Below, piece by piece: positions 4,694-63,900 of a stretch of DNA of 64,000 nucleotides. The notes below the pieces were generated by a model, which saw only the letters and a list, made by a program, of their open reading frames with translations, ran no database searches and had not been told where the DNA came from. The DNA lies in the IMG/VR virus record IMGVR_UViG_3300035701_000010, positions 33,657 to 97,656 of that record; one strand, given 5' to 3'. Positions within the stretch are counted from its first letter, which is position 1, and every line of letters begins with the position of its first letter. The DNA is from a virus. The translations under genes and the position numbers were made by a program.

Positions 4694-5168
4694 TTTCGTT
4701 CTCCTGGGTTACTGGCTTTTCCATTAATAAGATTTCTTCATCTCCTTTCAGTTTGCCATAAAAACTCACTCTCCATCCGCTATCATAAAGAACTAGAATC
4801 TTACTCACTTCTATTTCAGATCCAACAAACTTTTTAACCTTCCAACGAACTTTTTTGTCTATGTGCGATTTAACAACACTATGAGCAATCGATTCTATCA
4901 TGGAGAATAACTGGTTGGTTGCTTTGTTCATAATGTCGTCATGAACTTGCTGCATCATTGCGTCAAGAGCTTTCAAAGCAGTTCTTTTTAATTTCTTTTC
5001 AATGAATTCTGTCATAGCGGCTCTGATCTTTTCGTCAAGAGATTGATTATCTGCTTCTAGTTGAAGAATTCTTGCTTTGGCTGTTTTTAGTCTCGTTGAA
5101 AGAGTTTCAATTTGACCTTCAAGGTCTGTTTTAACGGCTTCTAGTTCTTTTGCTTTGACCAGTAACAT
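4662..5168 (-). CDS. Coiled-coil hypothetical protein
   Basis: Heptad-rich N-terminus; RBS GAGGAGG upstream. Confidence 0.6.
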   Translation of the reverse strand: MLLVKAKELEAVKTDLEGQIETLSTRLKTAKARILQLEADNQSLDEKIRAAMTEFIEKKLKRTALKALDAMMQQVHDDIMNKATNQLFSMIESIAHSVVKSHIDKKVRWKVKKFVGSEIEVSKILVLYDSGWRVSFYGKLKGDEEILLMEKPVTQENENGKPKREPRS

Positions 5169-6000
5169 AAATAGTTCCCTCCTCAGACATTTGAATTCCT
5201 GTTTGGATGATTGTGTGTTCTATGATTTTAAACGCTTGGTTAATCACTCGTTTGTCTACTTTAAAATAAGTCGCCATAGCTCCTATGGTTGGTGTAACTA
5301 GAAATGGTCTCCTTGAATCATAAGACTGGTTAGCCTTCCTTGCTCTGCATCTAAAATCAAACATAATTATTTCTTCAAAGCGACTGTTGGTTTTATATAG
5401 AGTATCGAAAACTTTTCTTACGAAACTTCTTTTTCTTCTAATAAATCCAGTAGGTGTGTAGCGACTCGCGTCAAGTTTCTTCTTTACTCTTTTAAGGAGT
5501 TGCGAATATGAAAGTTTGAATTCAGGATTTTCTATATGAGAATCTTGAATTACGTCTTGAAGAAAATAGGATGAATTCGGTTGCTCTAAATCTACCCTAT
5601 CATTAAAAATACCAGATCCTTCATTTGCATCAGGTCTAACTCCTTTCCAGAAGAACCCAAAATTCGTTTCAAAAATTGACCGGACTGGAAAAACTTTATT
5701 ATCTATCTTTGGGATTTTGTCTCCTGTAGTTAAATGAGAGCGTTGATTAATAAAAAAGTTCTTAGCGATTTTCTTGATAAAGGTGGCTAAGCTGCTTACT
5801 TCCGGGTTATAGCTGGGAAGATTATTTAGCAGCTTAATTCTTAAATCTTGACATAAATCATCAGTTTCTATAGAGTAATCGAAAAAGAATGATGTAACCC
5901 ATTTGGAACAAATACTTTCTATTAAAGGATTGTATTGGATAAGAAGTTGTTTGACCGAAACCCGTTTGAGTTTTCCATTTTCTCTGATCAGTAATTTCAT
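5131..6000 (-). CDS. Phage RNA polymerase sigma factor (sigma70 region 2-like)
   Basis: YNPLIESICSKW...ETDDLCQDLRIKLLNNLPSYNPEVSSLATFIKKIAKNFFIN matches sigma70 region 2; possible C-terminal HTH (TIGAMATYFKVDKRVINQA). Confidence 0.75.
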   Translation of the reverse strand: MKLLIRENGKLKRVSVKQLLIQYNPLIESICSKWVTSFFFDYSIETDDLCQDLRIKLLNNLPSYNPEVSSLATFIKKIAKNFFINQRSHLTTGDKIPKIDNKVFPVRSIFETNFGFFWKGVRPDANEGSGIFNDRVDLEQPNSSYFLQDVIQDSHIENPEFKLSYSQLLKRVKKKLDASRYTPTGFIRRKRSFVRKVFDTLYKTNSRFEEIIMFDFRCRARKANQSYDSRRPFLVTPTIGAMATYFKVDKRVINQAFKIIEHTIIQTGIQMSEEGTIYVTGQSKRTRSR

Positions 6001-9666: not shown

Positions 9667-9969
9667 CTATTGTTTTGTCCATCCTCTTGCTTCCATGCAC
9701 CGAGTCATTGCGTTATTGAAGCTTAATGCTTCGGTAATTCCTGCTCCGATTCCGGAACCCATTGCCCCTCCCAACGTGGCAGGGGTCATCGTTGACCCGC
9801 TAAAAGAAGCGGCGTAACTGCGAGCAGTCATTTCGCATCCAAATTTATCACTTTCAAAATCTGCTGTGGTGGCTCCAGATTTGGCGAACATAACTTTTCC
9901 CCCACACCCAAGACACGATAACACAATCAACAGCATCAATATACTTTTCATTCTTGCTCCTCCTCCCAC
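9667..9969 (-). CDS. Putative lipoprotein
   Basis: Signal peptide with lipobox-like LSCLGC; C-terminal CMEARGW. Confidence 0.6.
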   Translation of the reverse strand: MGGGARMKSILMLLIVLSCLGCGGKVMFAKSGATTADFESDKFGCEMTARSYAASFSGSTMTPATLGGAMGSGIGAGITEALSFNNAMTRCMEARGWTKQ

Positions 9970-10472
9970 TTCTTTAAAAGGTTAAAGGTCTTTTTGAAGA
10001 GTAAATAGGTCACCATCTTGATGCCAGGAATAGAGCTTTCTCTTGGACCGGCCACATTGATAACGAGTGGGGCTTTCACGATCCCATAAATATATTTAAT
10101 GGTTCCTGCAATGTGATACTCCTGCATCTTATGCGTCGGGCTGTAGACGAGAAGACGATGCTTTCTTAACTCTTCAGCCAATTTGCCTGTTAATTTGGTT
10201 CCAGGACCTCCTTTCTGATCAGGATCAATAATGATTGTGAGATCTGAATCTTGAACATTTTGTTTAGTTCTGGGTGACCATTTTTCAGAAGCATGTTCTT
10301 TCAGACCATAAATAGATCCAAGTTTAGGGCTAGGTCCATCTTCAGTCTTAAACCCTTTAGGTGCCGTTCCGCCTGTTTTTAATCCACTTTTCTTGGCTGC
10401 TTTTAAAGCTCCGAAGTCAACCCCTGTTTGGCCGCCGGATATAATTCTTCTAATGTATTTTGTGGTTCCCAT
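9948..10472 (-). CDS. SLOG-superfamily protein (MoCo-carrier/cpYpsA-like)
   Basis: IISGGQTGVD.GAL.AA, TGGTAPKG, RT..NV.DSD.T and INVAGPRES motifs. Confidence 0.85.
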   Translation of the reverse strand: MGTTKYIRRIISGGQTGVDFGALKAAKKSGLKTGGTAPKGFKTEDGPSPKLGSIYGLKEHASEKWSPRTKQNVQDSDLTIIIDPDQKGGPGTKLTGKLAEELRKHRLLVYSPTHKMQEYHIAGTIKYIYGIVKAPLVINVAGPRESSIPGIKMVTYLLFKKTFNLLKKWEEEQE

Positions 10473-15592: not shown

Positions 15593-16848
15593 TGAACTCT
15601 CCTAATCTTCAAAGATTTGAGGAAGTTTGCTCATGAATTCATAGGCTTTCTCTGCCGCTTCGGTGTGGGTAAGATTTGGTTCTTTGTTCCTATAGGCGTT
15701 GCAGGTCTCTGCGACGAAGTCGACATAGCGGATTCTTTTGATTTTTTCGTCATCGGTTTTGACAAGAACTTGGGTGGCACATCTTCCAATAATGGATTTA
15801 ACGATGCTGGTATCTGTACTTGAAACATAGTCTAATTGTTCTACAAACCTTTTCTTCATGGTCATGACGGTTATAAGGTAAGCCTCTTTTTCAAGAGGAA
15901 CTTTGAGCAATCCTTTTTGTGTCTTGATTGATTCTGCATTCTTCATTTTCATGTCTCCTTTTTGCGCTTTCTGGAACTCTCCACCATTCTGAATCTTCAT
16001 CTCGAATCAAGATTCTTCCGCATTGATGGCACCACCAGTGGTCAATATACGAATCGTCATGATTTTGATGAATAAGATCCATTTCCTCATTCTTTCCGCA
16101 TTGGCATTCCATTATTCCTCCTTGGTGTTGAAACTCAAAAGGGTTTGTTCAGTCATTTCCATATCATCTACCTCTATTCCATCAATTGTTGAAATGAATC
16201 CGTAGTCCATCTCATTCACGCACTTGGTCAATTCTGTAACCGTTTTGGGTTCTTCATGTCTAAAACCGAGTTTGATTGTGACATAGACGGTTGATTTCAT
16301 GCTTCTTCTCCTTTCTTTATTTGTTGGTCAATCTCAAAAATCAGATCTCTTAAATTCTTCATCGCCTTTTTCACAAAAAATGGAAATTTACTCCAACCGG
16401 AGTGGCAACAAGCTTCCCATAAAAGCATAGTCATTAAAAAGTAAGATTTAAAGATAGGATCTTTTCGTATCATCTTATTTAACAAGAAAAGATGATACGT
16501 TTCTTCAGGTTCCAGTTCTATATCTGGCATGTTAGAACTGATAAGATTTTCTACTCCTTCATAAGCTTCAATCGCTTCAATCAGTTGTTGTTGTGTCATT
16601 CCCATTTTTCTTCTTTCTCCTTTTGGGGATAGATAGGTGTCTTATTTCCATGTTGAGCAAACTCAGTTTTTCTTTCAGCGCATCGGCTTTCGCTTGCATA
16701 ATTCTCATCTTCTTTTCAAATTCATTCACCTGTCGTACCGAAGCTTGAAGATCAATTTTCAACTTTCGCATTTGTTCTACCAATGCTCTAACTTTCAGCC
16801 ACCGCTCTTTTATATCTATAATCATAGGGGTGCCCTAAAACTAGGTAA

Positions 16849-16877
16849 ATGCTACCATAACGATTTGTTTGATGCCA
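16849..16877 (-). promoter_or_regulatory. Promoter TGGCAT-N17-TAGCAT
   Basis: Shares TTTTGCTGGCATCA...TCGYTATGGTA with the 18966 site. Confidence 0.6.
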
Positions 16878-18965
16878 GCAAAAACCATAGGCTTTCTGTG
16901 AAAGCTTTGAGTCTACAAGTTAACAAATCGCATAGGTTCTCTGTTTACCACTTCTAATTTTTCTCTAGTTCTAGATTCATTCAAGGTGGCAAGAGTGGCC
17001 GCACAGGTGGATAGGGCAACGGCATCGCGTCTAATATCGTCTGCACGCAGATACATCCTGATATTATTTTTCCCTTCCATATCTTTTCTCACTTCAGAAA
17101 CTCTTGCTTCTCTTACTTCAGAGAGATGTCTTGAAATACTTTCTATCAGAAGTCCGACAGCCATGTTTGCCGTGAAAATCATCGCTTCGAAATCTAACTT
17201 CGCAACATCGGCACATAAATCATTCTTTGTATTGTTCATTTTTTGTCCTCCTCTAATTCTTTTTTAGCCATTTCATGGAGTGTGGGTTGAAGAGCCGCCC
17301 CGATGTTATGAAGCTGCTCTATGGTCGGCGCAGGATGATCTATTAATTTTTCTAATCCTGCACTGTGAATACAAGGTCCGCAAATGTTAAATTGATTTGA
17401 GAGAAAGATGGTGTTGATAAAGAGAGGAATTTTTAGATCAGAATGTAAATTTTTAAAAAGTGTCTTGACAGTCTCCTCTCCAAACTGTTCTTTCACCACA
17501 TTCAAAATAAAGGTGAATATTGGTAAATCTTTTTCTGTCATGAACTTTTTGATCTTGGTATGAAATTCAGGATCAAAAAAGTGGGTGGGTTCGTCAATGA
17601 GGGAAAGTTTTTCCAGAGTGATTGCCATCTTGAGATAGAAGTCTCTTACATCTATTCCCTCTTTTTTGCAACAGAAACATTTAGGAGCATTGAAGACAAA
17701 TTCTTCCTTACGGCTTCTGTTCATCTTACGATCTTTTTTCTGCTCCGCTTTGATTTCTGGGGTGACTTTCTTTTGAATTTGTTCTTTTATGAACTTCTCA
17801 TTCAAAGCTGCTGCTTCAGGGTGAATTTTGCAGATGCGATCCTTTGGATTGATCGGAACTGTAGATCGTCGATTGAGTACATGACCACAAAGTGAACAGG
17901 TTACGGTTTTTGGTCTAAACAATCCTTTCTTTTCCATCTCGTCCTCCTTTTATTATATAGGATCAAACCCATAAACTTCTTTTACAAGGTATCTCATTTC
18001 TTGAATAAGGAAATATTTCCGGGCTACATCAGACGGAACTTTTTTGGGATAATCTCCTATCTGGATCATACTTCCTATCCTCCAGCATGGACAAATGGTT
18101 GTGATATGAAATTGATGAAAGAATTGCGTTTCGTCATAACCTGATAGGAAGTTGACTAGGTTAGAAAGTCCTAGGCATGTGGCTTTGCATAATCTATCTC
18201 TATCCCAAGATGTAATTAGCTGATGCCATTTTTGAAATGGACATGTAGAAAGGAATTCAGAATCTTTTTTAGTAGCAACAAACCATTCTCTGGCTAGTTG
18301 ATCTCTTTCTTTAAGAACACTGTCTATAGCCTCTCGTATTTCTATATATTTCACTTCCATCTTATCCCTCCTCATCAGTTTAGAAGAATAGCGGCCATGA
18401 TCCAGAATCCTAACCAGAACCATGCTTGTCTTCTTGCCATAAGTCACCTCCTTTTAAGAGATTATAGTTTATTTCTCAGTCCTTTCGATGTCTATGTAAA
18501 ATCTTTTTTTGTCATCCGATGTATAAGCACTCAAGATTACCCATTTAATAACAGGATTAGAAAATATTTCAATTTCTGCGTCCATCGGAACCTCTGCCAA
18601 ATCTTGAAGTAACTCTTTTTTGTTCATCTTTACTCCTTTTATTCGTCATCTTTGTCTTCTGGCTGAACAGATTTGGGACTGTCAAATCGTAGGTTGGCTG
18701 TGAATCCTATTGCAGATTCACGTCTCAGAACGGCTCTTACAAAAGCCAGATTAGTACGAAAAATTTCCACGCTGCCATCCTTATTGGTCAATCCAGGACG
18801 TCCCAAATACCTTTCCACATCCCCTTGTCGTCTAGCGCAATGAATACACTGGTTGAAAAATCCGATCTTTTGTTTCATTTTTTCATCAGGATCAAACTCT
18901 TCATCGCAATCCCTACACTTCAAATGCATCATCACCCCCCTGTCATAAAAGGTTAGCTATGGGTA

Positions 18966-18994
18966 ACTATACCATAGCGAATTAGATGATGCCA
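18966..18994 (-). promoter_or_regulatory. Promoter TGGCAT-N17-TATAGT
   Basis: Intergenic, 17-bp spacer, paralogous to the 16849 site. Confidence 0.6.
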
Positions 18995-21900
18995 GCAAAA
19001 TACTACCCTATTCCCTACCAGCCATACCACTCAAAAGGAAAAGCTTTTTTCCTGAGTTCACTATCTTTCTTCCTATCTCTCTTCCTAAAGGCTTCAACAT
19101 CTACTTTTTCTAGGTTAGAATGAGTTTCGAAATAACAATCTGCTGCGAGCTCAAAAACATCAGATCGTTTGATACTTTTAGACATGTCTGGTCTTCCCAT
19201 TTCGTCAGATAGAATCTCATCGCCAATGGCTTGCCAGACTGCTCTCAAGCCGCGAATCCATCGCTCTTCTTGCGTAATCCCTTTCATTTCAAAGCTCTTT
19301 TTAATTTTTGCTTTCATTTTTCACCTCCTATCTATTTCTTACTGCTTTGATAATCCATGCCCCGTCTTTGAGAGTAATGTCTTGTTCGGAAAGACCCCAA
19401 ATCGCTTGCCTTTTTTCATAAACTCCAAGAAGATGAGTTTTGACTCCTTCCGTTCCATGAACTAGAATTTCACTTTTCATGGAAGCTCTCTTAAGTTTCT
19501 TGATCAATTCTTCTGCCGTCATTTTTCACCTCGCTTTTCTGCTTTAAGAATTTCTTCCCAAACATCTTCTCCAAGCCCTTCTGCTGAAGAATAGTTACCA
19601 TCGGTGTAATAGTTGTGTTCTGGATCTGCATCGAGATCTTCTATATCAAAATCTATCTTGTGTCCGATGCTCCAGAAGCAGATAATCTCACCATCATCAT
19701 TAGTCAGGGTAAGTTTCACTTTGCTTATCCTCCTCTAATTCTAGAACACAAAAGATGGTTTGATGACAAAATTGACATTCTTTTTCTATCACGGTTAATG
19801 GTTCTGTTGACTTATCCAAGATAAAGATATTGGATTTTGAGCAATGAGGGCAACTAGTGACGAAAGTTATGCCACTCGTTTCAGTAGATTGAACAGTTTG
19901 TTTTTCAGGAATCTTCATTTCATACCTCCAATTTTTTAAATCCCATTGTGGTGAGAAAAGCTTCTCCTAACGTTTCTTGAAATGAAGAGACCAACAGCCT
20001 GTAGAATGCTGGAGTATGGCTTGCTTCCATTTGCCAGATGGTACCGTCGTCTTCTGCTTCAGGATTCAAATGAATCTCCATTCCCTGAGCATCGGCTATG
20101 AGAAAATAGTTTTTGCCTTCACCAATTAAGGGATCAGAGTCTGGTTCTTTAAACCTTTCTGCTCCAGCAAAGGCATACCAATCCGTTTTATCAAATTCTT
20201 TAAGATCCATCATAGTCCTCCTTTCAGATTATCATCATCTAAGGCATTTCTTCTTCAAATTGCTCTTCTTTAAAAAGGATTGCTTCGCAGCCACAATAGA
20301 AATATTTTTGCTTTTTGGTCAATATAGAACCATCGATACATTGATACTCGTCATCAAAAACTTCCATACAGACATTGTTTGGATAAAACTTTCCACAGTT
20401 CCAACACCAGAATCCAGATCCGCCACAGAGTTGTTTTTGATGTTTGTGGATAAATTCAGTGTTCGCCTTAGCACAGTCCGGACCCGTCTTTGTACACTCG
20501 CAAAAGTAATTCAGATCTTTACTTCCTGGACCGCAATGCGATCTTATCCACCATTCTTTTGGATCTTTGATTTGTTTTTCAATATACCAATTAACGATAA
20601 GACCTTGGTCATTTTTAAAATTTCCCTTTCTCATTACTTCCTCCCTCTTTCAATGTTCATGATCTCTGCCATCGCCATAAGATGGGCTACTAATCCCCTT
20701 CCTTTTGGAGGGGGCGTTGAACGATGCTCTGTTTATCTATGCCTGTTCTTTTCACGTTTCAATGCAGAAGCTTTCCGTTCTTCAAACGTTCCTCGACGCT
20801 TCGCTTGTCCCATTTAAAATGGTCACCTCCTTTTAATATTCTACATCCACGTTTGCCGCCCCATATTCCTGGCATCGCTTGCATTTTACACGATGTTTTG
20901 ATTCAAAAGCTTCTCCAATTTCATCGGTGGGTGCGCCCATCGCTTGGGTCATTGGATCGTTTAGTAACGTATCCCAGAATTTTCTCACTTCTGGACACCC
21001 TGGGTCTACTGGAGTTATCCATCTTGCCATCTTAGTCTCCTTTTCTGTTTTTCTTGTAGTCTCTGGCCATTTCTTGGCACATCTTTCTTTCTCGTTTAAG
21101 GAATTCCTTTTCTTTCTTTTGGTATTCTTTGAAGCTGGCTTTCTGTTCCTTGGTCCTCACCAATCCATGCTTTTCATAGCATTTTGGATCGCCATACGAA
21201 GAACACTTGGGACATTCTTGACAGATGCAGTCATCTGTAAATTTCCCACAGACTTCGCATGGACGGTCTGGCGGATCAATATCATTCATGCTCACTCCTG
21301 GGGGTAAACTCCATCCAAAAATTCCCATAGGTCACCTCCTTTCTTATTTTTCTTCTGTTAACTCTCGTGTGAGTTGCCTTCTTATATCATCATCAACGGA
21401 TTGGCCCTCCGGCACTTCGTCATCTTTTTCGTCTGGACTTTCCGCAGGGTAGAAAGATTTCCATAGATACCCTTCCCATTTGATGTTACACTTTTCACAT
21501 ACCATTTCTACAGAGATGGTATGAGCAGCAGGGAAGAACTCTTCTTCTTCAACGCACTCTGTTCCACAATAAGGACACAACATAGGTCAACTCCTTTCTT
21601 TATTTTCTCTCTTTTCGCCAGCGTTCAATGTATTCCTTTATTTCTTTTTTGAACGATTTTCTATAGTCCTCCTCTAAATTGGGTTTATCTCCAAAATTCC
21701 AAATCTCTATAAGGTCTTCAGCAAATGGATTAGTTTCCATTTCCGCTGCATAGAGATCAAAGACAGGAAAGAGGATGATTTGGCCAGACAATTCTGTTAC
21801 GAAATCGAAATCCTCTATTCCTTTCTCGTATCCAGTAACGTATCTTGGTACTTCAATTCCTACGGTTTTCAGGTAGTCAATAATCCAATCAAAATAGATA

Positions 21901-23000
21901 TCCTGGCAAGAAATATCGCTATCGATCCCCACCTTGTTCAGCCAACCTTTTCTGGTGTGATGTTTTTCCAATTCGCGGACTTTGACTTTAAGAAAATCAA
22001 AGATTTTGTCCTGGTCCTGAGTAATCTTTTTGATCACAGTTTTTACATCCATATCTCAACTCCTTTTTTTATGTTTCCATGGATCACACTTGTCATCACA
22101 GATGACCCTATAGAATTCAAGAAGCCCAAACCCGATGTTTTCATTAACGACTTCAGAGATGAGCGGACTTTTGCAAGAACAGAACCAGATACGGTTGAAG
22201 TGGGCAGGGGCTAGAGTGTCACTGACCATGCAATGTTCTTTCCCGAAAACGATATGGTGAGCCACACGGTTGTCATCATCAAAGAATCCTTGGTCCAAAT
22301 CTACAGCGAAGTATCGCCAATGCTTCTTGCATTTTTCACAAATGACATCCGATTCAGGATAGAACTCACCATCTCTCAAATATGAACGATCAAGCTTCCA
22401 TCTGGGCATTATTGTCTCCTATCCTTCTTTATGATTAAAGTCCTTCTTTTTCAATCCGTTTGAGTTCATCAATAATTTTTGAATATTTCTTGGGGTTTTT
22501 GCTTGACAGAATTTTGATGATATAACGGTTGATAAAGCTGGTTTCATCATGCGTGTTGCCTTCATACTCTACAAGCCTTGTATATTCACAGTAATTGTCC
22601 CAAGGGTCATAAATTCCATCATAAAAGATTTCTGACTTCAGCCCGTCGAAGTCGGCTCGCGCAAAGGTATCTCCATAGTTGATGATGGCTTTGTTGATGA
22701 ACGGTCTATACTTCTTGGTCAGATTCATCACGACCTGAAGTTGCTCTGATCGTTTCCTAACGTTAATCAGCATGATTGTCTCCTTTTAATACTCGCCGCC
22801 GTTTTCCCTCTTGTCAGCACATGAATTGCAATAATCGTACTCCGGTTTGATGATCACTGTTCTACCACATCCAGAACAGACTTTCTTCACTGATTTCAAG
22901 TGTGTTTTTCGGTAGAATTTCACCATTTCAGGATCATCCATGTTTTCCCACACGCCATAATTGTCGTCTATGAATACTCTGCTCATGGTAGTCTCCTAAG

Positions 23001-23027
23001 AAAAGGGCGGACCTTGCGATCCGCCCC
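23001..23027 (-). terminator. Intrinsic terminator
   Basis: GGGCGGA-TCGCAAGG-TCCGCCC-TTTT. Confidence 0.7.
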
Positions 23028-24310
23028 CGATTCTATGGTAGATCTTGTTTACTTCTCGGTCAGCACCACCGTCACTTCATCAGGGATTTCCATGCCCTTT
23101 TTGAAGTACAGATTGCCGACCACTCCCTGCTCCATGTCCTCGATGATGTAGGGGTGATAGCGTTTGCTGTCCACGCCCTTGTACTTCATGTTGACGGTCA
23201 GGGTGCTCTTGCCTTTCTTCGCCGGTGTTTTCTCAGCCATTTCTCTTCTCCTTTATCATTGTTTGTTTCAACATAACTCCACCTTAAGACTCTTCTTCAC
23301 GCTCTCTGTTGGTTTCTTCCTATCGGGTTACTGGTTCGTCACCTCCTTTCTAGCCCTGATACTTCGGGTCAGGGTTTGGAATTTCAGTCGCGCTTAAGTA
23401 ATAGATCTTCTTCAATTCCTCCTTTGTCTCACAAGAATAGAATGTAATGGGGACCCACTCGTCATCCAAATTCGGCTGAATATGACTAGTCGAAAAGAAG
23501 AAACGTTCTGTTTCTTCGGAACCACCATCCGCAAAAACAATCAATCTCATCTTACTTCTCCTTTCTATGCAAGGTTCACCTTGGTGTGACACCCTGCTCC
23601 TTTCTTTCTCCAAATGAGTTTGCTCGCTACCCATTCCAAAAGGCGATAGTAGAGTTTGTACCGCCCCCTGAAAGGTCCGTATGTTTGACACATGAGCTCT
23701 GTAAGGTCCAACAGAGCCATCTCCATACTCTCTTCGAGACTCTGTTGGTCGTCAGACCAGAGTGGCTTATTGGGATCAGGATCTTTCCATGCATCTGTTT
23801 CCCACGGGTCTTTGGTTTTCAAAAATTGGGCGATGGCTTCATCCCGCTCTTCCTCGCTGATGAGCCCGCTTAGACAGGCCCAATCCGCGTCAATCCGTTC
23901 TCCACCTGGATCCAATCCAATTCTTCCCATCTTTATCCTCCTCTTAAGGGTGTATTCTTTTCCTGCTCTTTAGCATCGCAAAGAGATTCTCCTCCTCTCC
24001 AAAGCTAATGTATCCCATTTCTGCCATCATCTTGAGTTGACTCTCCAGGTCGTAGACCGATCCCTCCGTCAAGCATTGTCTAACCGCTTTCTGTTCTCTC
24101 ACCCTCTTTTTGAGGTCTTCAAGAATCTCATGCTTCGCTCCTTCCGATAGACTCAGAATTCTTCCCATGTGTCTCCTCCTCTCTTTCCAGTTCTCTTCGA
24201 ACAAATCTTCTTCTCTTCATTTCCCCTTACTTCCCCTTGACTGTGATGTGATTAACCTCCTTGGGTGACCATAAGGGTGAAGGGGTAGGGGTAAAGTGAA
24301 GTAGATAAGA

Positions 24311-31301: not shown

Positions 31302-34127
31302 GCCTTTCTCCTTAGCGGAGAGCCGAAGCCCTCCGCTCGGTTAGTTAAGCGGTGGTCAGATCCTTTCTTGGGTCATGCCTTCGCATGGTGGTTGTCGAAG
31401 TTCTAACTCTGACTTGATACCGCTTGTCTTCGTACCCAGGAAAGAGGTTTTGATCGATCACTACGTTGTTTCGTTGAAGGGTTGCTCTGGTGACATAGCC
31501 TGGATGGTGTTTATCTCCAGCCTTTACCTTTCTACTCTGGTCTACAATGTATTGCCTTAATCCTTCCATGATTGCCTCCTATCAGGCTTGGTTAAAAGTT
31601 AGACCTTGTTGATATGCACAAAGATATAGCTTCCGCAAGAGCAATATCCGACAGTCTTGCTGAAGAAGTGCCCAAAGTCTTTATCATCTTCAGGATTCAC
31701 GCCATGTTTCTTGCGATATCTTCGCGCCGCTTTCGTTTCATTAATAGGGCTATTGCATTTGTAACATCGAATAACCCCATCTCTGAATTCACTTTTCACT
31801 GCCATTGTTGTCACCTCCTTTCTAAGATAGGGATGTGCAGTCCCTTCTGTTAAGGGTTGCTAGAACTTACCTTTCTTCAGATCTTCCAAGTGTCCTTGAA
31901 AAGCCCATCGTCCATAGGCGATGTTAAGATAGGGCAATCCAAGAAGTCGAGGCTGAATGATTTTGCCCTGCTTAATGAAACGAAGAAGTATTTCTTTCGC
32001 CATTTCATAGCAGCTAATCCATTCAAGCTTCTTGTACTGATTGAGGAGATGGTCTACATCGTCAAGAGGCCAACAAGTCCCTGCAACGATGCATTTGACA
32101 TCTTGCTCATCAATCAACCCCTTAGCGATGTCCATGATGCATCCGGACAAACTAAGACCAATAAACCTTGCATTATCCATGCTAGTTCCTTTCTAGAACA
32201 GGGATGTGCAGTCCCTAGGTTAAAGGTTAGTCAATGAATTGAATGCTTGACAAGTCCAACAGATTGGCTTTGGCGAAATGCCGTAGATTCTTTACATTGC
32301 TACGATACTTGGCTAATGCTTCTCTTCTAGCTGTGATCCTCTTGATCATTTTCAGCTCAGCCTTTAGCCTGCTCTTAGCCATGCCATAATCGGGCTTCAT
32401 CTCAATCAAGTCCATCGTTGTCACCTCCTTTCCTTGTGGGTTTATTTCTGCTTATGCCGACTCGTTAGAGCAAGCATAAGCAGAAGGGCTAACATCAGCC
32501 TCCTTGAGCGGACATTAGCCCTTCCTAGTTATGCTAGAAGCAGACTACTTTTTGGCTTTCGCCTTCTGCTTCTGCTGTCCTACCCTAACCTTGCCATTGA
32601 CAACGGTTGCCGTTGCCATCCGGTTGGTTTGTGAAGCACATCCCCCAACCATTCGCTGTTTCGCAAATGGAGCCGCCCAGATAGAGCAACCAAGCCCATC
32701 AATGCGACCACATCCTGTACATGCCGACACAATAGCCAATCTAAAAAGTTCCATAGTCATCTCCTATTGGGTTAAGGTTATGAAGATAAGTTAACGATAT
32801 GAAGTAGACCGTTGTTTCTGTTGACAAGGACAACGGTCAAACCTCCGACATCCCTAAGATGTCAGTATGGAGGACGGATGCTAAAAGCTTTCGCTTTCGC
32901 ATATGGTCTTATGAAGCAATCGCACTTCGTAAGACCACCTTCGCCCTTGGGCATAATCGTGGTCTCCATAGCTGATTGATATAATCAGCCATGAAGACTT
33001 ACCGACCATGACCATGAAGCCAAGGTCATCGTCCTCGTGATCCTGCGTTCTCTCCAACGAGAACCAGAACCATTCTGTGTTGGCGCAGGTCCATTTGAAT
33101 GGTTTGCACCAACTCCAGAGCTTCCATACGAGGAAGTCTATCATGTAGTTCACCTCCTTTTTAAGGGTAGATTTAAAACTTAACCCTTAATCGAAAGCCC
33201 TGTTTCCAGGGCTTTCTGTTAAGGGTTACTCACCACGGGTACCATTGTCTGTTTCCGTGTTTCCATTCCCAGAAACAGTCATAGGCTCCGTAATACTCCA
33301 TGTTAATAACTTCTAATCTAAACCAATACTCTCTCATCTTTGTCACCTCCTTCCTGTCATGTAGTTTGCCATTTACCAACTATATATGAATTGTCTATAG
33401 TCTGACAAGCAACTATAGGCAAATTTTTTTTGTCCCCCTCAATGAAGAGGGGGACAAATTTAAAGGTTAACGGCTTCCAGGTGAGCAGTCCTGCACCATC
33501 GTCCTAAGTTGGTCTTGAGTAAGACCTTCATAGTCCGGGTCATGCAGGTCGGACAGTAGCTTCTTAGTATCGCACTTCGAAGCTACTATGCCACATGACA
33601 CGCACTTCTTTTCAGAAGCACGTCCATTAGGCATGTCCCAATGGCCCCACGGAATGCATCCACTGACTACATAGTGGGTGCAAAGGCAATCCCAATTGCA
33701 CGGATCACGATAGCGCATCCGGCACTTGGCGTTGATTGCACAATCAAAGATTGGCAGATCAGCGTGTTTCTTTGCCATATTGGTATCCTCCTTTCAGGCA
33801 AGTGAGTGTGAACAGTGACATCTCAGTAAGTGCCTATCCTTACTGAACTGTTCACACGACGGGTTATGAAGATAGGTTAATTAGTTCCCAAAGAAGATGG
33901 GAACGAGTATGGTCAAGTTCAAGAACCATACCACGATACAGATGCCTCCAACCACTATGTAGATCCATTCTCTCATCGTTGTCACCTCCTTTCCTAGAGT
34001 AAAAAGGTTTGATCTAACTATCAGTTCACAGACTATTTAGACTGCCTGCAAAGCATGGGCAGAGTACAGGCATAGTTATATGGCTATCATTTGCTTATTG
34101 TATTTGTGGTGTGGTTATGCAATTAAA

Positions 34128-34748
34128 CTACCATGTTACTGTTGCGTATTGTAGTTTAGCAATTGCATACTTATTGCAATATGCATGTATTTGTTTACCC
34201 CATAGTTTGTATACATACAGCCCAACCATAAACGTTTGCCTTATAGCACAACCGTATAGTATTGGTTGCACCATGCACACCATTGGTATATATGCAACAA
34301 GGTTAATAAGCTTTAGCTTTTGTGCTAACCTTTGGTATTTTGCACCCATTGCAAACAACGTGTATGTTACTGCGTATAGCATACTGTTAAAGCAGTTAAT
34401 TGTGCTTGGTATGTTATGCCATAGTTGGTTAGTGTATATGTTAACTGCTAATGTTAATGCTATGCCAATACTAAGCGCAATATATGGCAGCTTAGTGCTT
34501 TTAATTGGCTTGTTGCCCCATTGCCTATTGCCATACCAATTTAAAAACACAAAATATACTGTTATTGCAATGTTGCCATACCATGCAAACCACCAGCCAA
34601 ATAATAACCAGTAAATATTAATTGCCCACCCAATTTTAAAAGCATGTTTTACAACAGTTGGGCTTTTAGCCAAAAATGCAAAGTTTTGGCAGCATGTAAG
34701 CCCTGTGTATAGCCAATTGCAAATAATAATAATTACATTAATAAGCAT
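34128..34748 (-). CDS. Asp/Glu-free polytopic membrane protein, PnuC-like (nicotinamide riboside/vitamin transporter fold)
   Basis: 206 aa, about 7 hydrophobic segments; YG.IAI.VYF.FLNWYG..QW resembles the PnuC pattern; SD is AAAGGGGT. Confidence 0.55.
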   Translation of the reverse strand: MLINVIIIICNWLYTGLTCCQNFAFLAKSPTVVKHAFKIGWAINIYWLLFGWWFAWYGNIAITVYFVFLNWYGNRQWGNKPIKSTKLPYIALSIGIALTLAVNIYTNQLWHNIPSTINCFNSMLYAVTYTLFAMGAKYQRLAQKLKLINLVAYIPMVCMVQPILYGCAIRQTFMVGLYVYKLWGKQIHAYCNKYAIAKLQYATVTW

Positions 34749-34840
34749 TTAATTACCCCTTTATTATTTAATTGTTATATTGTTAAGTTAACAACCGCAC
34801 GTTATTAAGTTATGTTGTTAGTTAATTATTGTTGTTGCAA

Positions 34841-34915
34841 TTATACATACATGCAAATAACTGCAACGCCAAAAACGCCTAACCACAATACATACCAAAA
34901 ATGTTTGCTTACCAT
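34841..34915 (-). CDS. 24-aa single-TM peptide MVSKHFWYVLWLGVFGVAVICMYV
   Basis: Manual translation; preceded by G-run SD AAGGGGGGT. Confidence 0.5.
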   Translation of the reverse strand: MVSKHFWYVLWLGVFGVAVICMYV

Positions 34916-36452
34916 TGCGTTACCCCCCTTACTATGTAATTGTTAATGGCACTAATGCCCTACCCTATGCTATTGTTACACAACGCAACAATAATATATG
35001 TAGGTCATTTTCTGAATCCTCGAGATTTTTCTGGTCAATCTGGCCAGATCCTGAGTAAATCGGATAACCATCGGATAGCCCTAAAGGGGACGATCGCCAA
35101 ACTCTGAAGACCCTGAGTAAATCGATTAGACCCAAAGGAGGCATAGGGTTAGGACGGGCTGACCAAGGCTAGACGATGAAATCGACCAAGGGGGAGGCGA
35201 TAAGGCGTATAAGGGAGGTAAGGGGTTGAAGGAATCGGAAACGCAAAGGGGGAAAATCAAAAAGGGAACCCGAGAGGGTCACGAAGTTCCCCTGGGTCCC
35301 CAATAGGACGAGGGATAGAAATAGGCGGGAAAAATTTATCGAGGAGTTTTTCGGAAAAACACTGGATCAGTTTTCAATTCTTGAGCGGCTTCCTTCAATT
35401 GCTTCCTAAAACAGGCTTCGGGGGTTTTTCCATCTTTTGGAATGTTCCAGAAAGAAGGATAGCCCGTCTTTTCCCAAACCACCCAATCGATCAAGGCAGG
35501 GGTGGCTTTGGGAAAATATTCTCTTACGAGGCTTTGAATGGTGGGGCGTTTCTTTTTAGGACGCATCAGAAACTCCTTTTTGAATGGCTTCTTTGTCTAA
35601 GGTTCCCATTTCTCCACGAATAATCTTAAGACTGCCACAGTGTCCACAGAAATCTTCCCCTTTATTTCTTAAATCAAGACGAAGCTGTCCACACTGTTGA
35701 CAGAAGTATTCAGTGAGTTTCAATTCAACGAGTGGCTTCAATTCATTCATCACGCAACTCCTTTTTGGTTTAAAGTTTCTCGGCTAAAACCCATAGAAAC
35801 ATGAAGAAAAGGGCAATGACGATAAGGAGGGTGAGGTAGCAGGCGATTTCAGCTTCAATTGCAAACCCTCCAGTTTTTCTTGATTCTATTTTAATGATTT
35901 CAGCCCGCTTATTGTTATCTTTTTTGATAGGAATCATTTGGTCACCCAATTTGAAAAAAGGCACCAAGCCTTTTTCTTAGTCATGCAGTTCTTCCTCCAG
36001 CACAAAGGCATGGTCAGATTCGAATTGGTAGCCAAGAAAGAAGAGGTAGCCGTCGATCGTCTTTTCTTCAATGCCTTCAGGATGGGCCACATGCTCTTCC
36101 ATAAAGGTTTTGACATGAGCAATGGCGTTTTCAGGATCTTTGAAGAGTTTGATTTCTGGATCGGTATGTCGATCGTTACAATAAGCAATATAGACTTTCA
36201 TAGAAGACTCCTTTATTGGAGATAAATCGGGTTCATTTTTAGGAACTGGAGGAGGAAACGCAGAACCCCCTCCCCCTCCTCCCATCATCGTCACCATAAC
36301 AGCGGTGGTGCCTTCTCGAATCGTAATGGATTCACTAAAAGGCCGAATCTTTTTGGAAGCCCTCTTTTCCCTTATCTTGTCTCTAGCCCAAGAATAGACA
36401 AAGGCCGTAAGAAACGAAATGACTGGAACGAGCCATAAAAGATTTTGGTCCA

Positions 36453-36788: not shown

Positions 36789-36998
36789 CTATTCATTTCT
36801 AGCAATGGAAGCGTTGGCCCACATGACGGCTTCTTCCAGTTTGGTCATCGCCACTGATTTTTCACGGCTGTCTGGACAATAGTCATCTATCAAAAGAGCG
36901 AGTCCTTTGGCAGCGGTTCGAAGATTTTCATACCGAGCGGCTTGGTCGTTTTTGGGAGGGTGATACGTAAACCGTTTGATTAGCTCTGCTGAATCCAT
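36789..36998 (-). CDS. Acb2/Tad1-like helical-hairpin protein (putative immune-signal sponge)
   Basis: FTYHPP..DQ..RYE.LR...CPDSREKSVAMTKLEEAVMWANASIAR resembles the Tad1/Acb2 hairpin. Confidence 0.55.
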   Translation of the reverse strand: MDSAELIKRFTYHPPKNDQAARYENLRTAAKGLALLIDDYCPDSREKSVAMTKLEEAVMWANASIARNE

Positions 36999-38112: not shown

Positions 38113-39035
38113 TTTATGATCCTTTGCAGTTCTTCTATTTGAAATTTATTTCTCTCACGAAGTTTAACAAGTTGAAGTTTATTGGTGCCTTTGAGCAGGC
38201 TATAGGCTTCTATATACCCTAAGATTTGTTCGAATGACAATTTTATTTTTGGAACAAATAGTTCCACTTTGGGGGGAGGGACAATGGTCGTTAAAAATTT
38301 TGATTCACTTATAGAACCATCATTTTTTGCGTTGATTAATTTTTGGGCGAGGGTTGGCCTTAGCTGGTCTAAATTGAAATAGACATTTCTTACTGTTTTA
38401 TAATGCGATATAAGATCGGATGCTTTTTTGGGTCCAATTCCTTTGACGCCTTGAATATTATCACTGGCGCACCCCATGATAATTTTCATTGCAGAAAACT
38501 GTTTTGGCGTGACTCCAAATTCCTTTTTTAAATCTTCTATGGAAAAATAAGTCAGTTCTGACCGTTTTAGCTTGCTATTAAAAACAGTATTGATCAGTTG
38601 GACATTGTTATCCAACAAGGCGTAGCAATCTCTATCATTTGTGTAAAAATGAATTTCACGATTATTATCGATTCTGTTAATAATATATGAAGCTACGTCT
38701 TCTCCTTCGTACGTTTTGGCGTATAGGGAAGGAATATTTAAGTTATAAAGAATGCCCTTAATCATTTCTCTTTCATTAGCCAACGATGGAATATCCTTTT
38801 TCCTTTTTTCTTTATAAGTCTGAATTTTATCTTTTTTGTAATAAGGTGGAGTATCCCATACGCAGATAATTGTTTTATATCCGTAGTCCGTTAACGAGAT
38901 CAATTCTCTAATGAATCCAAATATTGCACTTGTGATGATCTCTTCTCCATCTCTAACTACAGATAAATGGTTTTTGGCGAATGCAAAATAGGATTTATAA
39001 GATAGATAGGACGAGTCAATAATTGATATAGCCAT
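38106..39035 (-). CDS. 5'-3' exonuclease / flap endonuclease (PolI N-terminal, T5 D15-like)
   Basis: IID, CVWD, YKEKR, YEGEDV, NDRD, GCASDNIQGVKGIGPKKA (H3TH). Confidence 0.92.
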   Translation of the reverse strand: MAISIIDSSYLSYKSYFAFAKNHLSVVRDGEEIITSAIFGFIRELISLTDYGYKTIICVWDTPPYYKKDKIQTYKEKRKKDIPSLANEREMIKGILYNLNIPSLYAKTYEGEDVASYIINRIDNNREIHFYTNDRDCYALLDNNVQLINTVFNSKLKRSELTYFSIEDLKKEFGVTPKQFSAMKIIMGCASDNIQGVKGIGPKKASDLISHYKTVRNVYFNLDQLRPTLAQKLINAKNDGSISESKFLTTIVPPPKVELFVPKIKLSFEQILGYIEAYSLLKGTNKLQLVKLRERNKFQIEELQRIIKW

Positions 39036-39320
39036 CTTTTGATTTTCTCCCTCTATTTAGTTAATGGTTTACTTTATATACCGGTCGCTGTACCTGAGGG
39101 TAAAAAATTTTTACTAATTTCTCCCACCATGTTACAGGTCAGAATTTTCTGTTAAGGCTGAAAATACTTGTTTCTTATTCCTATTCTTCAGGTATGCTTT
39201 TATATAACCTCCTTTTAGGTTCGGGTTATGCTCCATCCGATCTGTGTCGTGGGTAGGGCACATGATGGGAGTGGTTTCCGCCGACCGCTCCCATCATCTT
39301 ATAATTTCGAGGATTCGTTC

Positions 39321-60900: not shown

Positions 60901-63900
60901 CAAGGATTTAAAGAAAATTGATCAAGAAGTTTTAACGGTCGTAGAACGGTGGCTGGAAATAGAGATTAGAAAAGGACATGCCATTAGAGAACAGCGAAGA
61001 GCAGCGGATGAACTTTCTCGTTCATATAGAAATCTCATGGACAGCATAGTTAGAGCAACTGAAGATCTAGTAATAAGCATGGCTGACTTAGGACCTCTTC
61101 AGAATATTCTAAAAGTTGATGAAAAAAATCAGAGAAAATTTGAAGAAATCAAAAAATCTGTTCAAGAGTTCATAGACAACGCAGACGTTGCACCTAAAGA
61201 TATCGTTGCGTTGTGGATGACAGACCAGGGAATTAGCACGGCGAATGAGGCTAGGAAAGCATTGGATGCGTATGCTGCTTCTTTCGAGCGAGTATCTAAG
61301 GTGCAAGCAGAATCGGCACGACGAAAAGCGTATTACGAGCAAATGGTACAAGTTCGAGAAGCTTTTGATAGTGTTAGTGATAGTATTAAAGATTTTATAG
61401 AACAAGCAAAAAAGGCATCTGGAGTGGATGAAGATTTAACAAGTACAATTAATGGGATTACTAAACAAACCAGAGATTACAAACAGGCTATCGCAGATTT
61501 GAATGAAAAGCTTGGCTATGCGGAAACGAATGACATAGAAAGCATCAATATCCATAAAGATAAAATTGCTGTGCAAAAAAATGCCATTGAACTCACTAAA
61601 CAGAATATTGCCGCAACACTCCAATCGATGCCTATTCAATTTCAAAGTGATGAATTAACCAAAAAAATGGCAGATGACTATACTGCTTTAAATAAAACTC
61701 TTAAATTTCATCAAGAAGAGTTAGAAAAAGTAACTAAGAATGAAGAAAAAGATTCGGTAGCTAGAGCAACAAATATTGCAGGAATAAAGGATCAAATTAG
61801 TTTTCAGGCGATGCTTTTGAAATCTTATATTGCTTGGGGTGAAGTTCAGAAACGAGTTGCCATGAACAAATACGCCTATACCATGATGAAGGCCAATAGA
61901 GATATAGAAGAAAGTAGGTCTGACAAGTTAGAAGAACTTGATTATCAAATGAATGAATACCACACTGTTGCACAAGAATCATATCATCAAACGTATGCGT
62001 TAAGCAAGCAAACGAGGGTTTATAGAGATGAAATAGAAGCGGTGACAGAGCAAATTAAGAATCAAGAATTGGTTTTACAAACGGCTAGAAGTCTTGGAGA
62101 TGACCATAACGAAACAATTGAAAAAAGCATTTCATTGTCTAAAAAGAAACAAAAAGCCTTGCAGGATGAATACGATTTATGGGTGCGTGTTCTTCCCGAA
62201 TTAAAAAGGCGTATTGACTTGGATACTAAAATTGCTAGTCTTCAACGAAGAGCTGAAATTTTAACGGAAGCTGGTGAAAAGAAACGAATAGGAGGAGGAA
62301 AAGATTACGAAGAACAAAGAGAGGCGACGCGATATTATAAAGAAGCATTGGATGAACGTCAAAAATTAGACTTAGCGGCTTTTGATAAAAAAATACAATT
62401 GGCGGAAGCCGAAGGATTTTCAACGAAAGAGTTGACTAAACAGAGAGAAGAGTTGCAAAAGGCTCATCTTGTAGCCCTGAAGCAATTCACGTTAACGAGT
62501 CATCAAGAAGAATTGCAAGCAATCAGAAATTCTTCTGCCTTGGAAGCTGAAATGATTGTAAGGACCGCTCAGACTGCTACCGAAACAATTACGGGGCTGA
62601 TGAAATCCGTGGTGGTGGGGCTGCAAGATTCGTATATTCAATACGAAGACATTTCCAAAAATATGGCTAGAATTGGGACTGACACATTTGAAACAGTTAC
62701 GGGCGCAATGACTTCGATGGTGGAAGCGTGGATTACAAATACTGAGAAAGGTTCTGAGAAATACAAAGCCATTATGCGGGATATGTTGAATACGATAGGG
62801 CGTGCCTTGGTTGATTACGCCTTTAAATTGATCATGATTCAAATTCTTCAAAAGGCGATAGGAATGGCCGTAAGTGCTGCAGGAGGTGCTGCAGGAGGTG
62901 CTAGTGCTGGAGCATCCGCTGGAACCATTATTGGAGGATCAGAAGGGACTTATCAGATGAGTACAATTGTCCCAGCGTTTAAGAAAGAGGGTGGCTTTCT
63001 TAAAGGTGGAATCAAAGGTAAAGACTCTATCCCAATCTTAGCTCAGGAGGGAGAGTTTATTATCCCAAAGCGAACAGTAGACAAATATGGGGTTGCCTTT
63101 TTTGAAAAGTTAAGAAGTCGGAAATATGCGGAGGGTGGAGTAGTTGATAAGAAAGATAAGGTAGCGTATAAGCGTGAAGTAAAGGATCAGGATAGAGAAC
63201 GTTTTAGAAAAGAGATTAGAAAAGAAGGCTTCATTATTCCAAAAATACTCAAAGAAAGATATGAGAAAAAGCTTATCAAGACAATAGAGAGGCAACAGAG
63301 GTTTGAGCGTGGCGGGCTTCTTAAGGAGAAGATCACGAATGAAATGGAGTTCCAAAAAGGCGGAGTGGTTAGAAGTCAGATTATTAACAACAACAGAGAA
63401 TTTCAGAAAGGCGGAGTAGTCAGAAGTCAGATAACGAATAACAACAGAGAGTTTCAAAAAGGCGGAGTAGTCAGAGAAAGAGTTGAGTCGAATAGGCAAG
63501 AGTTTAGACGTGGTGGTTCGGTTAAGAATAGTGAAATGAGAATGGAAAGAATTGAACTTGATCAATTAGAATTTCAAAAAGGTGGAATGGTTAGCAATCA
63601 GATTACGAACAACAACAGAGAGTTTCAGAAAGGTGGGATGATTAGAGAAATAAGTGATACCAGGAGGTATGAATTCACTAAAGGCGGATTAGTTAAAGAT
63701 AGAGAAAAAATTAGTGAAAAGGAAAGAGATAAAGATAAGGTCTTTGTTGAAGAAAAAGTTCATAAAAAAGAAGTGGCTATTCCAAAATTGGTGGCAAGAA
63801 GATTAGGTCCGGAATTGACTAGCATGTTGCGGAGGCAAAAGCATGAGCAAGGCGGACTGGTTACGATTGTTAAAGAATTTCAGAAAGGCGGAGTAGTCAG

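Follow-up and report, generated by a model that had tools for sequence, protein, structure and literature searches.

A two-gene cassette without GA or TC dinucleotides in an uncultured sediment phage

The GA/TC-free island and its parts

The window examined here (the whole stretch of DNA that was analysed, 64,000 nucleotides (nt)) comprises positions 33,657 to 97,656 of IMG/VR virus record IMGVR_UViG_3300035701_000010, a linear contig of 97,656 bp that is approximately 70% complete. Within this window, the 918 nt from 34088 to 35005 contain no GA and no TC, as had been claimed in an earlier reading made from the sequence alone (hereafter the sequence-only reading). This island is one expression unit on the minus strand, encoding a small membrane peptide and a larger, transporter-like membrane protein, and it has a counterpart in a second phage, represented by IMG/VR contig G001. 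The features at the locus are as follows.

34088..35005, minus strand: GA/TC-free island, one expression unit with a putative promoter region, two genes and a 40-nt 3' tail (0 GA, 0 TC)
34918..34931, minus strand: ribosome-binding site AAGGGGGG of the peptide gene, a Shine-Dalgarno sequence without GA
34841..34915, minus strand: gene of a 24-amino acid (aa) single-helix membrane peptide, MVSKHFWYVLWLGVFGVAVICMYV (from translation; 87.5% identical in the second phage; open reading frame (ORF) kept in two strain variants)
34752..34762, minus strand: ribosome-binding site AAAGGGG of the transporter gene (AAAGGGGG in the equivalent place of the second phage)
34128..34748, minus strand: gene of a 206-aa seven-helix membrane protein with a predicted PnuC-like fold and no Asp or Glu (AF2 model, VIA-align, Foldseek)
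35046..35124, no strand assigned: 17-nt direct repeat in two copies (AGAYCCTGAGTAAATCG), a possible operator, just upstream of the island border
35267..35280, minus strand: terminator-like hairpin followed by a T run, end of the upstream operon

Along the minus strand, about 90 nt of upstream DNA are followed by AAGGGGGG, the 24-codon ORF, a 92-nt A/C-rich spacer, AAAGGGG, the 206-codon ORF and the 40-nt tail. The flanking genes possess AGGAGG or GGAGG ribosome sites (as in front of 33985 and close to 33790), whereas those of the island genes are of the GGGG type; hence the Shine-Dalgarno sequences of the island have been respelled without GA. The codons of the 206-aa gene are similarly restricted: all serines are AGY, all arginines AGG and all phenylalanines TTT, isoleucine is ATT or ATA, and neither Asp nor Glu occurs. 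The terminator-like hairpin at 35267-35280 suggests that the island has its own promoter, and the two 17-nt repeats sit between this hairpin and the island. These repeats, together with an 11-nt tandem pair, lie in a 330-bp intergenic region (35006-35335) whose minus strand is rich in pyrimidines. A 167-aa ORF on the plus strand (34111-34614) was dismissed: it belongs to no family, the second phage lacks an equivalent, and the missing TGA accounts for an open antisense frame.

The recount of the island returned 0 GA and 0 TC, where the window frequencies predict approximately 63 and 66, respectively, and the island is bordered by a TC at 34087-34088 and another at 35005-35006. The next longest GA/TC-free gap in the 97,656-bp contig measures 48 bp, and no other dinucleotide pair displays a comparable gap anywhere in this contig. 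At a combined GA and TC frequency of 0.138 per position, the probability of finding none in 918 nt is ~7e-60, while the 222 non-coding nt of the island alone give a chance of ~5e-15. When the 206-aa protein was back-translated 5000 times with the codon usage of the phage, the GA/TC count averaged 40 and never fell below 24, against an observed value of 0. In the remaining 99% of the genome the GA/TC content is normal or slightly raised. The six-base palindromes AAGCTT, ATGCAT and GTTAAC persist within the island, which agrees with the proposal of the sequence-only reading that the rule concerns a dinucleotide and not palindrome avoidance. Its view of the rule as strand-symmetric, extending over coding, ribosome-binding and intergenic DNA and maintained by selection, was likewise borne out. 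Indeed, since the ban is absolute, strand-symmetric and inclusive of non-coding DNA, the level at which it is read would be double-stranded DNA.

The 206-aa protein has no match to any Pfam or PHROG family; the PF04973 (NMN_transporter) profile did not match it in Pfam at E<=0.1, and no PDB sequence match was found. Its AlphaFold model (AF2, nine relatives; predicted local distance difference test score (pLDDT) of 84.5) contains seven membrane helices and superimposes on the vitamin B3 transporter PnuC (4qtn_A), with a VIA-align Z of 12.1 and a root-mean-square deviation of 4.7 over 166 residues, the next chain reaching a Z of 7.9. The top Foldseek match of the model is also 4qtn, and the nearest language-model (Atlas feature) clusters are PnuC, with a score of 0.83 that serves as a lead only. 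The model thus predicts the seven-helix PnuC fold for this protein, while the family profile does not recognize it. The transporter family is rare, with seven matching proteins at E<=1e-10 in an exhaustive search of 1.84 billion representatives, and the homologs of the 206-aa protein are P0002-P0009.

Reality and conservation of the ban

The island stretch was found in 15 sediment-metagenome runs from 13 studies, public runs being compared as Logan contigs with a depth of 2-7. Contigs from independent runs cross both island borders unchanged (34685-35410 in X4 record 5, 34016-34276 in X4 record 3, and 33934-34130 in X6 record 10). Both borders being bridged in this manner, an assembly chimera, which the sequence-only reading had named as a finding that would refute it, is excluded and the GA/TC-free sequence is real. 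Two strain variants from other runs each carry approximately 20 substitutions and three indels over the peptide region, with GA/TC still at 0 and the ORF kept; in the variant contig that reaches the upstream border (X7 record 16), this border is kept to within a base. The island DNA has no match in the cultured-phage collection, Rfam recognized no RNA family, riboswitches included, in the two islands (only hairpin-like chance matches), and no description of such GA/TC-free islands was found in the literature.

The second phage, G001 (35.7 kb, 26% complete), encodes a transporter that is 34% identical to that of the window, within an island of 1158 bp devoid of GA and TC; the next gap in this G001 stretch is 48 bp. 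The order of the unit is promoter-like TGTATAAT, GGGG ribosome site, peptide MPSKHFWYVLWLGVFGVAVVCIYV (87.5% identical to that of the window), spacer, GGGGG ribosome site, transporter gene and hairpins. Furthermore, GA and TC are also lacking from the approximately 85 nt that precede its promoter-like -10 element. An 18-nt direct repeat in two copies (TTTTCTCGAGCGATCAAG) lies just upstream of the G001 island and differs from the 17-nt repeat of the window; the G001 repeats, in the place matching 35006-35335 of the window, have CTCGAG cores. The 3' tail of the G001 island contains a long, near-perfect, GA/TC-free hairpin (L004 10655-10730), probably a terminator. In both islands GC, CA, TG, GG and TA are in surplus, and GA/TC is the sole dinucleotide that is absent.

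A protein signature was used as a stand-in for the DNA of the other homologs: a GA/TC-free gene bars Asp, Glu and the residue pairs [MW][IMTNKS] and F[PHQ]. The forbidden pairs are entirely missing from P0001-P0008 (eight of nine cluster representatives), where shuffled sequences lead one to expect 5-7 in each (P<=0.002 each). Asp and Glu are wholly absent from seven of these eight, the P0006 clade keeping one conserved Glu. The P0009 clade breaks the rule, with three acidic residues and five forbidden pairs; P0009 itself has no match in the cultured-phage collection. The clade of P0009, P0012 and P0013, with its acidic residues and GA-forcing pairs, represents a natural control. A search for further island loci returned only the second phage among viral contigs, none or chance matches among metagenome contigs, and none among genome contigs. 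Judging by these sequences, the GA/TC ban is ancient, maintained by selection and relaxed in one lineage, the P0009 clade.

These data dispose of the idea that an artefact, a chimera, a synthetic insert or a one-off hypermutation event lies behind the island, for which only the oddity of the sequence speaks. The borders are bridged in independent runs, the stretch recurs in 15 runs from 13 studies, and the ban is kept both in strain variants and across transporters of 34% identity. A footprint of TC-deaminase hypermutation was also sought and rejected: AA stands at 94 against 87 expected and TT at 116 against 106, so that neither is inflated as TC-to-TT deamination predicts, and the surplus lies in GC, CA, TG and TA. 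We regard this explanation as refuted, its probability being close to nil.

Selection at the RNA level only, with the message avoiding an RNase or the loading of Rho, is very improbable. Rho binds YC dinucleotides, and the mRNA strand of the island indeed contains no UC; the same strand has 15 CC, and the observed/expected ratio of CC is 0.68-0.72 in both islands. Such selection leaves the loss of GA unexplained, though this loss cost the proteins all of their Asp and Glu, and it does not account for the absence of GA and TC from the DNA that precedes the promoter-like element.

The sequence-only reading had also proposed that the segment is a leader, probably the first DNA to be injected. This proposal finds no support in the position of the island, which is an internal unit approximately 4 kb inside a leftward array that starts at a divergent region near 39035-39228, and which follows the terminator-like site. 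The neighbouring early genes have an ordinary GA/TC content. Among four relatives with terminases of 58-65% identity, the cassette is present only in G001; two syntenic relatives (loci L009 and L011), which include 8-10 kb of the corresponding flank of the terminase gene, share the exonuclease with this phage but possess neither the island nor the transporter gene. The island is an accessory, self-contained two-gene cassette and not a leader. At 36789-36998 (minus strand), 1.8 kb upstream of it, a gene encodes a 69-aa product in which an Acb2/Tad1 hairpin domain is recognized (E 4e-24) and which may act as a sponge for the cyclic nucleotides of immune signalling.

This setting bears on a further explanation, in which the cassette escapes an enzyme of the host or of a competitor that marks or cuts GA in single strands, such as a CmdT-like ADP-ribosyltransferase, and is expressed after the defence has fired; GA-free mRNA and Shine-Dalgarno sequences would stay translatable, and a GA-free template strand transcribable. 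CmdT modifies the adenine of GA in single-stranded RNA and, weakly, in single-stranded DNA, and GA occurs in almost every Shine-Dalgarno sequence (PMC11618068). The GGGG-type ribosome sites of the island, next to neighbours with AGGAGG, are what such an escape would produce, and the nearby Acb2/Tad1-type gene indicates an anti-defence neighbourhood. In addition, a PnuC-like importer may plausibly serve the metabolism of NAD, the co-substrate of such enzymes. However, the equally absolute loss of TC from the coding strand requires a second assumption, and so does the GA/TC-free, non-transcribed DNA upstream of the G001 promoter-like -10 element. Moreover, neither a host nor a defence of this type is known in the case of the present phage, and protection of one cassette would not rescue the other phage messages. 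On balance, we consider this explanation unlikely, although it is the leading alternative and the sequence-only reading, too, had raised evasion of a GA/TC-directed host defence.

DNA-modification genes and a proposed unmodified cassette

The genome carries a cluster of putative DNA-modification genes outside the window, at 16246-23496 of record C1 (loci L001-L003), and one related gene at another location.

C1 modification cluster: 401-aa thymidylate-synthase (TS) homolog, from a TS-family match
C1 modification cluster: 341-aa DUF932-like protein, neighbour of the TS homolog
C1 modification cluster: DUF4326 protein and DUF2284 protein
C1 modification cluster: radical S-adenosylmethionine (SAM)/SPASM enzyme
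C1 modification cluster: TET-associated glycosyltransferase (TAGT), PF20691 E 1.5e-18, phrog_842 E 3.5e-46
C1 modification cluster: SAM methyltransferase
Elsewhere in the genome: YfbR-type dNMPase (deoxynucleotidase)

By its profile matches, the TAGT would be a post-replicative transferase acting at the level of DNA; phrog_842 is annotated as beta-glucosyl-HMC alpha-glucosyltransferase. Among proteins of solved structure, the cytidine monophosphate hydroxymethylase MilA is the best relative of the TS homolog; at the base-reading 'PFN' position, however, the homolog possesses the Asn of true thymidylate synthases, where MilA has Asp. Its phage relatives include SPO1-type deoxyuridine monophosphate hydroxymethylases, and Salmonella and Pseudomonas phages dominate its matches. 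As the role of this residue is established, the Asn points to uracil as the probable substrate and hence to a genome with glycosylated 5-hydroxymethyluracil. The combination of genes in the cluster matched no characterised pathway.

The gene content clarifies the remaining suggestion of the sequence-only reading, namely a segment left without modification while the genome around it is hypermodified. The idea as such fits best, because DNA-hypermodification genes are present. The 7-deazaguanine chemistry that it had envisaged does not: the machinery is of the pyrimidine type, and no match to DpdA/TGT or QueC was found at E<=1 in this ~70% complete genome.

In the mechanism that we favor, selection has stripped every 5'-TC-3' from both strands of the cassette. 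Thymine would be replaced by 5-hydroxymethyluracil through the TS homolog, and the DNA glycosyltransferase and accessory enzymes would decorate this base after replication, in the TpC context only. With no TC on either strand, the cassette would offer no modifiable site and would remain ordinary DNA within a bulky, modified chromosome. The unmodified host sigma-70 polymerase could then read it in any modification state of the genome, whether on incoming, fully modified DNA, on newly made copies or at late stages of infection; at a guess, the cassette might also escape a modification-dependent shut-off or a modification-dependent attack by the host. That a TC-free stretch bears no such modification would explain why the ban is strand-symmetric, takes in the promoter as well as the tail, and admits no exceptions, and this reading fits the gene content of the genome. 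The analysis itself establishes the ban, its conservation, what it cost the proteins, the PnuC fold and the presence of modification genes; that T is the modified base, that TpC is its context, and any reason for keeping this cassette unmodified are inferred. To the claim that a cassette without modifiable TpC stays ordinary DNA in a thymine-hypermodified genome, we assign a probability of roughly 0.45. Somewhat short of even odds is the broader proposition that some context-modifying phages keep 'modification holes', whole units rewritten down to the amino-acid alphabet so that their expression is independent of the epigenetic state, with a PnuC-like importer and a micropeptide in an anti-defence neighbourhood as the present example.

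Context-dependent thymine chemistry of this kind has precedents. The phage T-dioxygenase 5mYOX97 strongly prefers NTC (PMC13229309), and the restriction-resistant sites of phages M6, ViI and phiW-14 suggest that T is modified within TG and TC (PMC6449724). In both island-bearing phages, six-base palindromes with GA/TC are not avoided while others are (Mann-Whitney U test, p = 0.034 and 0.005); the AA/TT class behaves similarly, so the test is confounded by AT content, and the contrast lends the modification reading weak support.

Several points weigh against an unmodified cassette in a thymine-modified genome. For this uncultured phage, the base and its context are deduced from genes and sequence. 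Neither a TET/JBP dioxygenase, nor a 5-hydroxymethyldeoxyuridine (5-hmdU) DNA kinase, nor a C5-methyltransferase was found in the ~70% complete genome, so that no enzyme setting the TC context emerged from it. Two proteins were considered for this role and set aside: the 341-aa neighbour of the TS homolog, which is DUF932-like, and the 381-aa neighbour of the methyltransferase, which has no family and no Atlas match. The contig of the second phage, 26% complete, gives no view of its modification genes. An island lacking a dinucleotide is absent from Maribacter phage Molly_1, whose TS homolog is the closest among cultured phages. The early neighbours have normal GA/TC content, so modification cannot simply block early transcription, and the modification reading does not explain why this cassette and not its neighbours should need to stay unmodified. 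Finally, the P0009/P0012 clade lacks the constraint.

A double-stranded DNA enzyme with a short GA/TC target, of host or phage origin, might instead have imposed the ban, the cassette being the sole kilobase-sized stretch that it cannot touch; a frequent-cutting nuclease, a TC-specific deaminase, a DarT-type ADP-ribosyltransferase with a TC context or a CRISPR protospacer adjacent motif such as TTC would each qualify. A ban that is strand-symmetric and all-or-none and that extends to non-coding DNA fits such an enzyme, and would mean that a single site is very costly. Yet the other 99% of the genome, with its normal or raised GA/TC content, would be destroyed by such an enzyme unless modification shields it. 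Since the rest of the genome is so rich in GA/TC, this explanation cannot stand alone, and shielding leads back to the modification reading. Among 101 genome ORFs, Pfam revealed no nuclease, deaminase or ADP-ribosyltransferase candidate for the role (5'-3' exonuclease, RuvC and Metallophos domains being among those found), and a Pfam sweep of 43 small early ORFs likewise returned no ADP-ribosyltransferase, deaminase or nuclease candidate. We consider an enzyme of this kind, acting by itself, to be quite improbable.

Genomic setting, significance and known systems

Beyond the cassette and the modification genes, the phage encodes a Mu-type portal and protease, an E-type capsid protein, Pol III alpha, RecA, an NAD-dependent ligase, a sigma-70-like factor and uracil-DNA glycosylase. 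A 289-aa phage sigma-70 region-2 protein (5131-6000, minus strand) suggests that host RNA polymerase is redirected to later genes. A circularly permuted YpsA SLOG protein is encoded at 9948-10472 (minus strand), and also occurs in Maribacter phage Molly_1 (112979-113431). At 63874-64000, 51-bp tandem repeats run into the contig end in 2.5 perfect copies, with a related 87% array 400 bp upstream (63353-63475); these repeats may be the sign of either a terminus of the genome or a break in the assembly.

If the cassette indeed escapes modification, then sequence alone can reveal a DNA modification and its dinucleotide context in uncultured phages, the banned word naming the target. It would also follow that phages depend on unmodified DNA for the expression of certain genes, which would add a new level to gene regulation and help to gauge the cost of bulky modifications. 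The case further illustrates how a constraint at the DNA level reshapes proteins, with seven-helix transporters working without an acidic residue. Should a GA/TC-reading host enzyme be the cause, the island would still point to a strong selective agent in sediment bacteria.

Among known systems, the thymidine hypermodification of M6, ViI, phiW-14 and 5mYOX97 resembles the proposed mechanism in that T is modified after replication in a manner set by its 3' neighbour, TpC included. The present genome has the upstream type of enzyme, a TS homolog predicted to be of the uracil type, and a DNA glycosyltransferase. In contrast, no target-free island has been reported from those phages, the ~70% complete genome yielded neither a dioxygenase nor a 5-hmdU kinase, and the chemistry of the present phage is predicted from its genes. 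The island protein shares its predicted seven-helix fold and a similar length with the nicotinamide-riboside transporter PnuC (PDB 4QTN), and differs from it in having no acidic residues, in its pairing with a 24-aa peptide, and in the lack of a PF04973 or PDB sequence match.

The CmdTAC system involves the same dinucleotide, and the GA-free Shine-Dalgarno sequences of the island are what an escape from CmdT needs; however, CmdT reads one strand, as RNA, whereas the island bans TC as strictly as GA and does so in non-coding DNA as well. Phage genomes avoid restriction sites and other short motifs, and the early or first-transferred segments of T7 and T5 are site-poor. The island shares with such avoidance the selection against a DNA word read by an enzyme, but here the word is a dinucleotide, its loss is absolute and limited to one expression unit of 0.9-1.2 kb, the proteins are rewritten, and palindromes persist. 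Dinucleotide depletion is also found in eukaryotic viruses, where CpG is depleted under ZAP and TC under APOBEC3. There too a host factor reads a dinucleotide and the virus is depleted of it, yet that depletion is genome-wide and partial, while that of the island is local and total.

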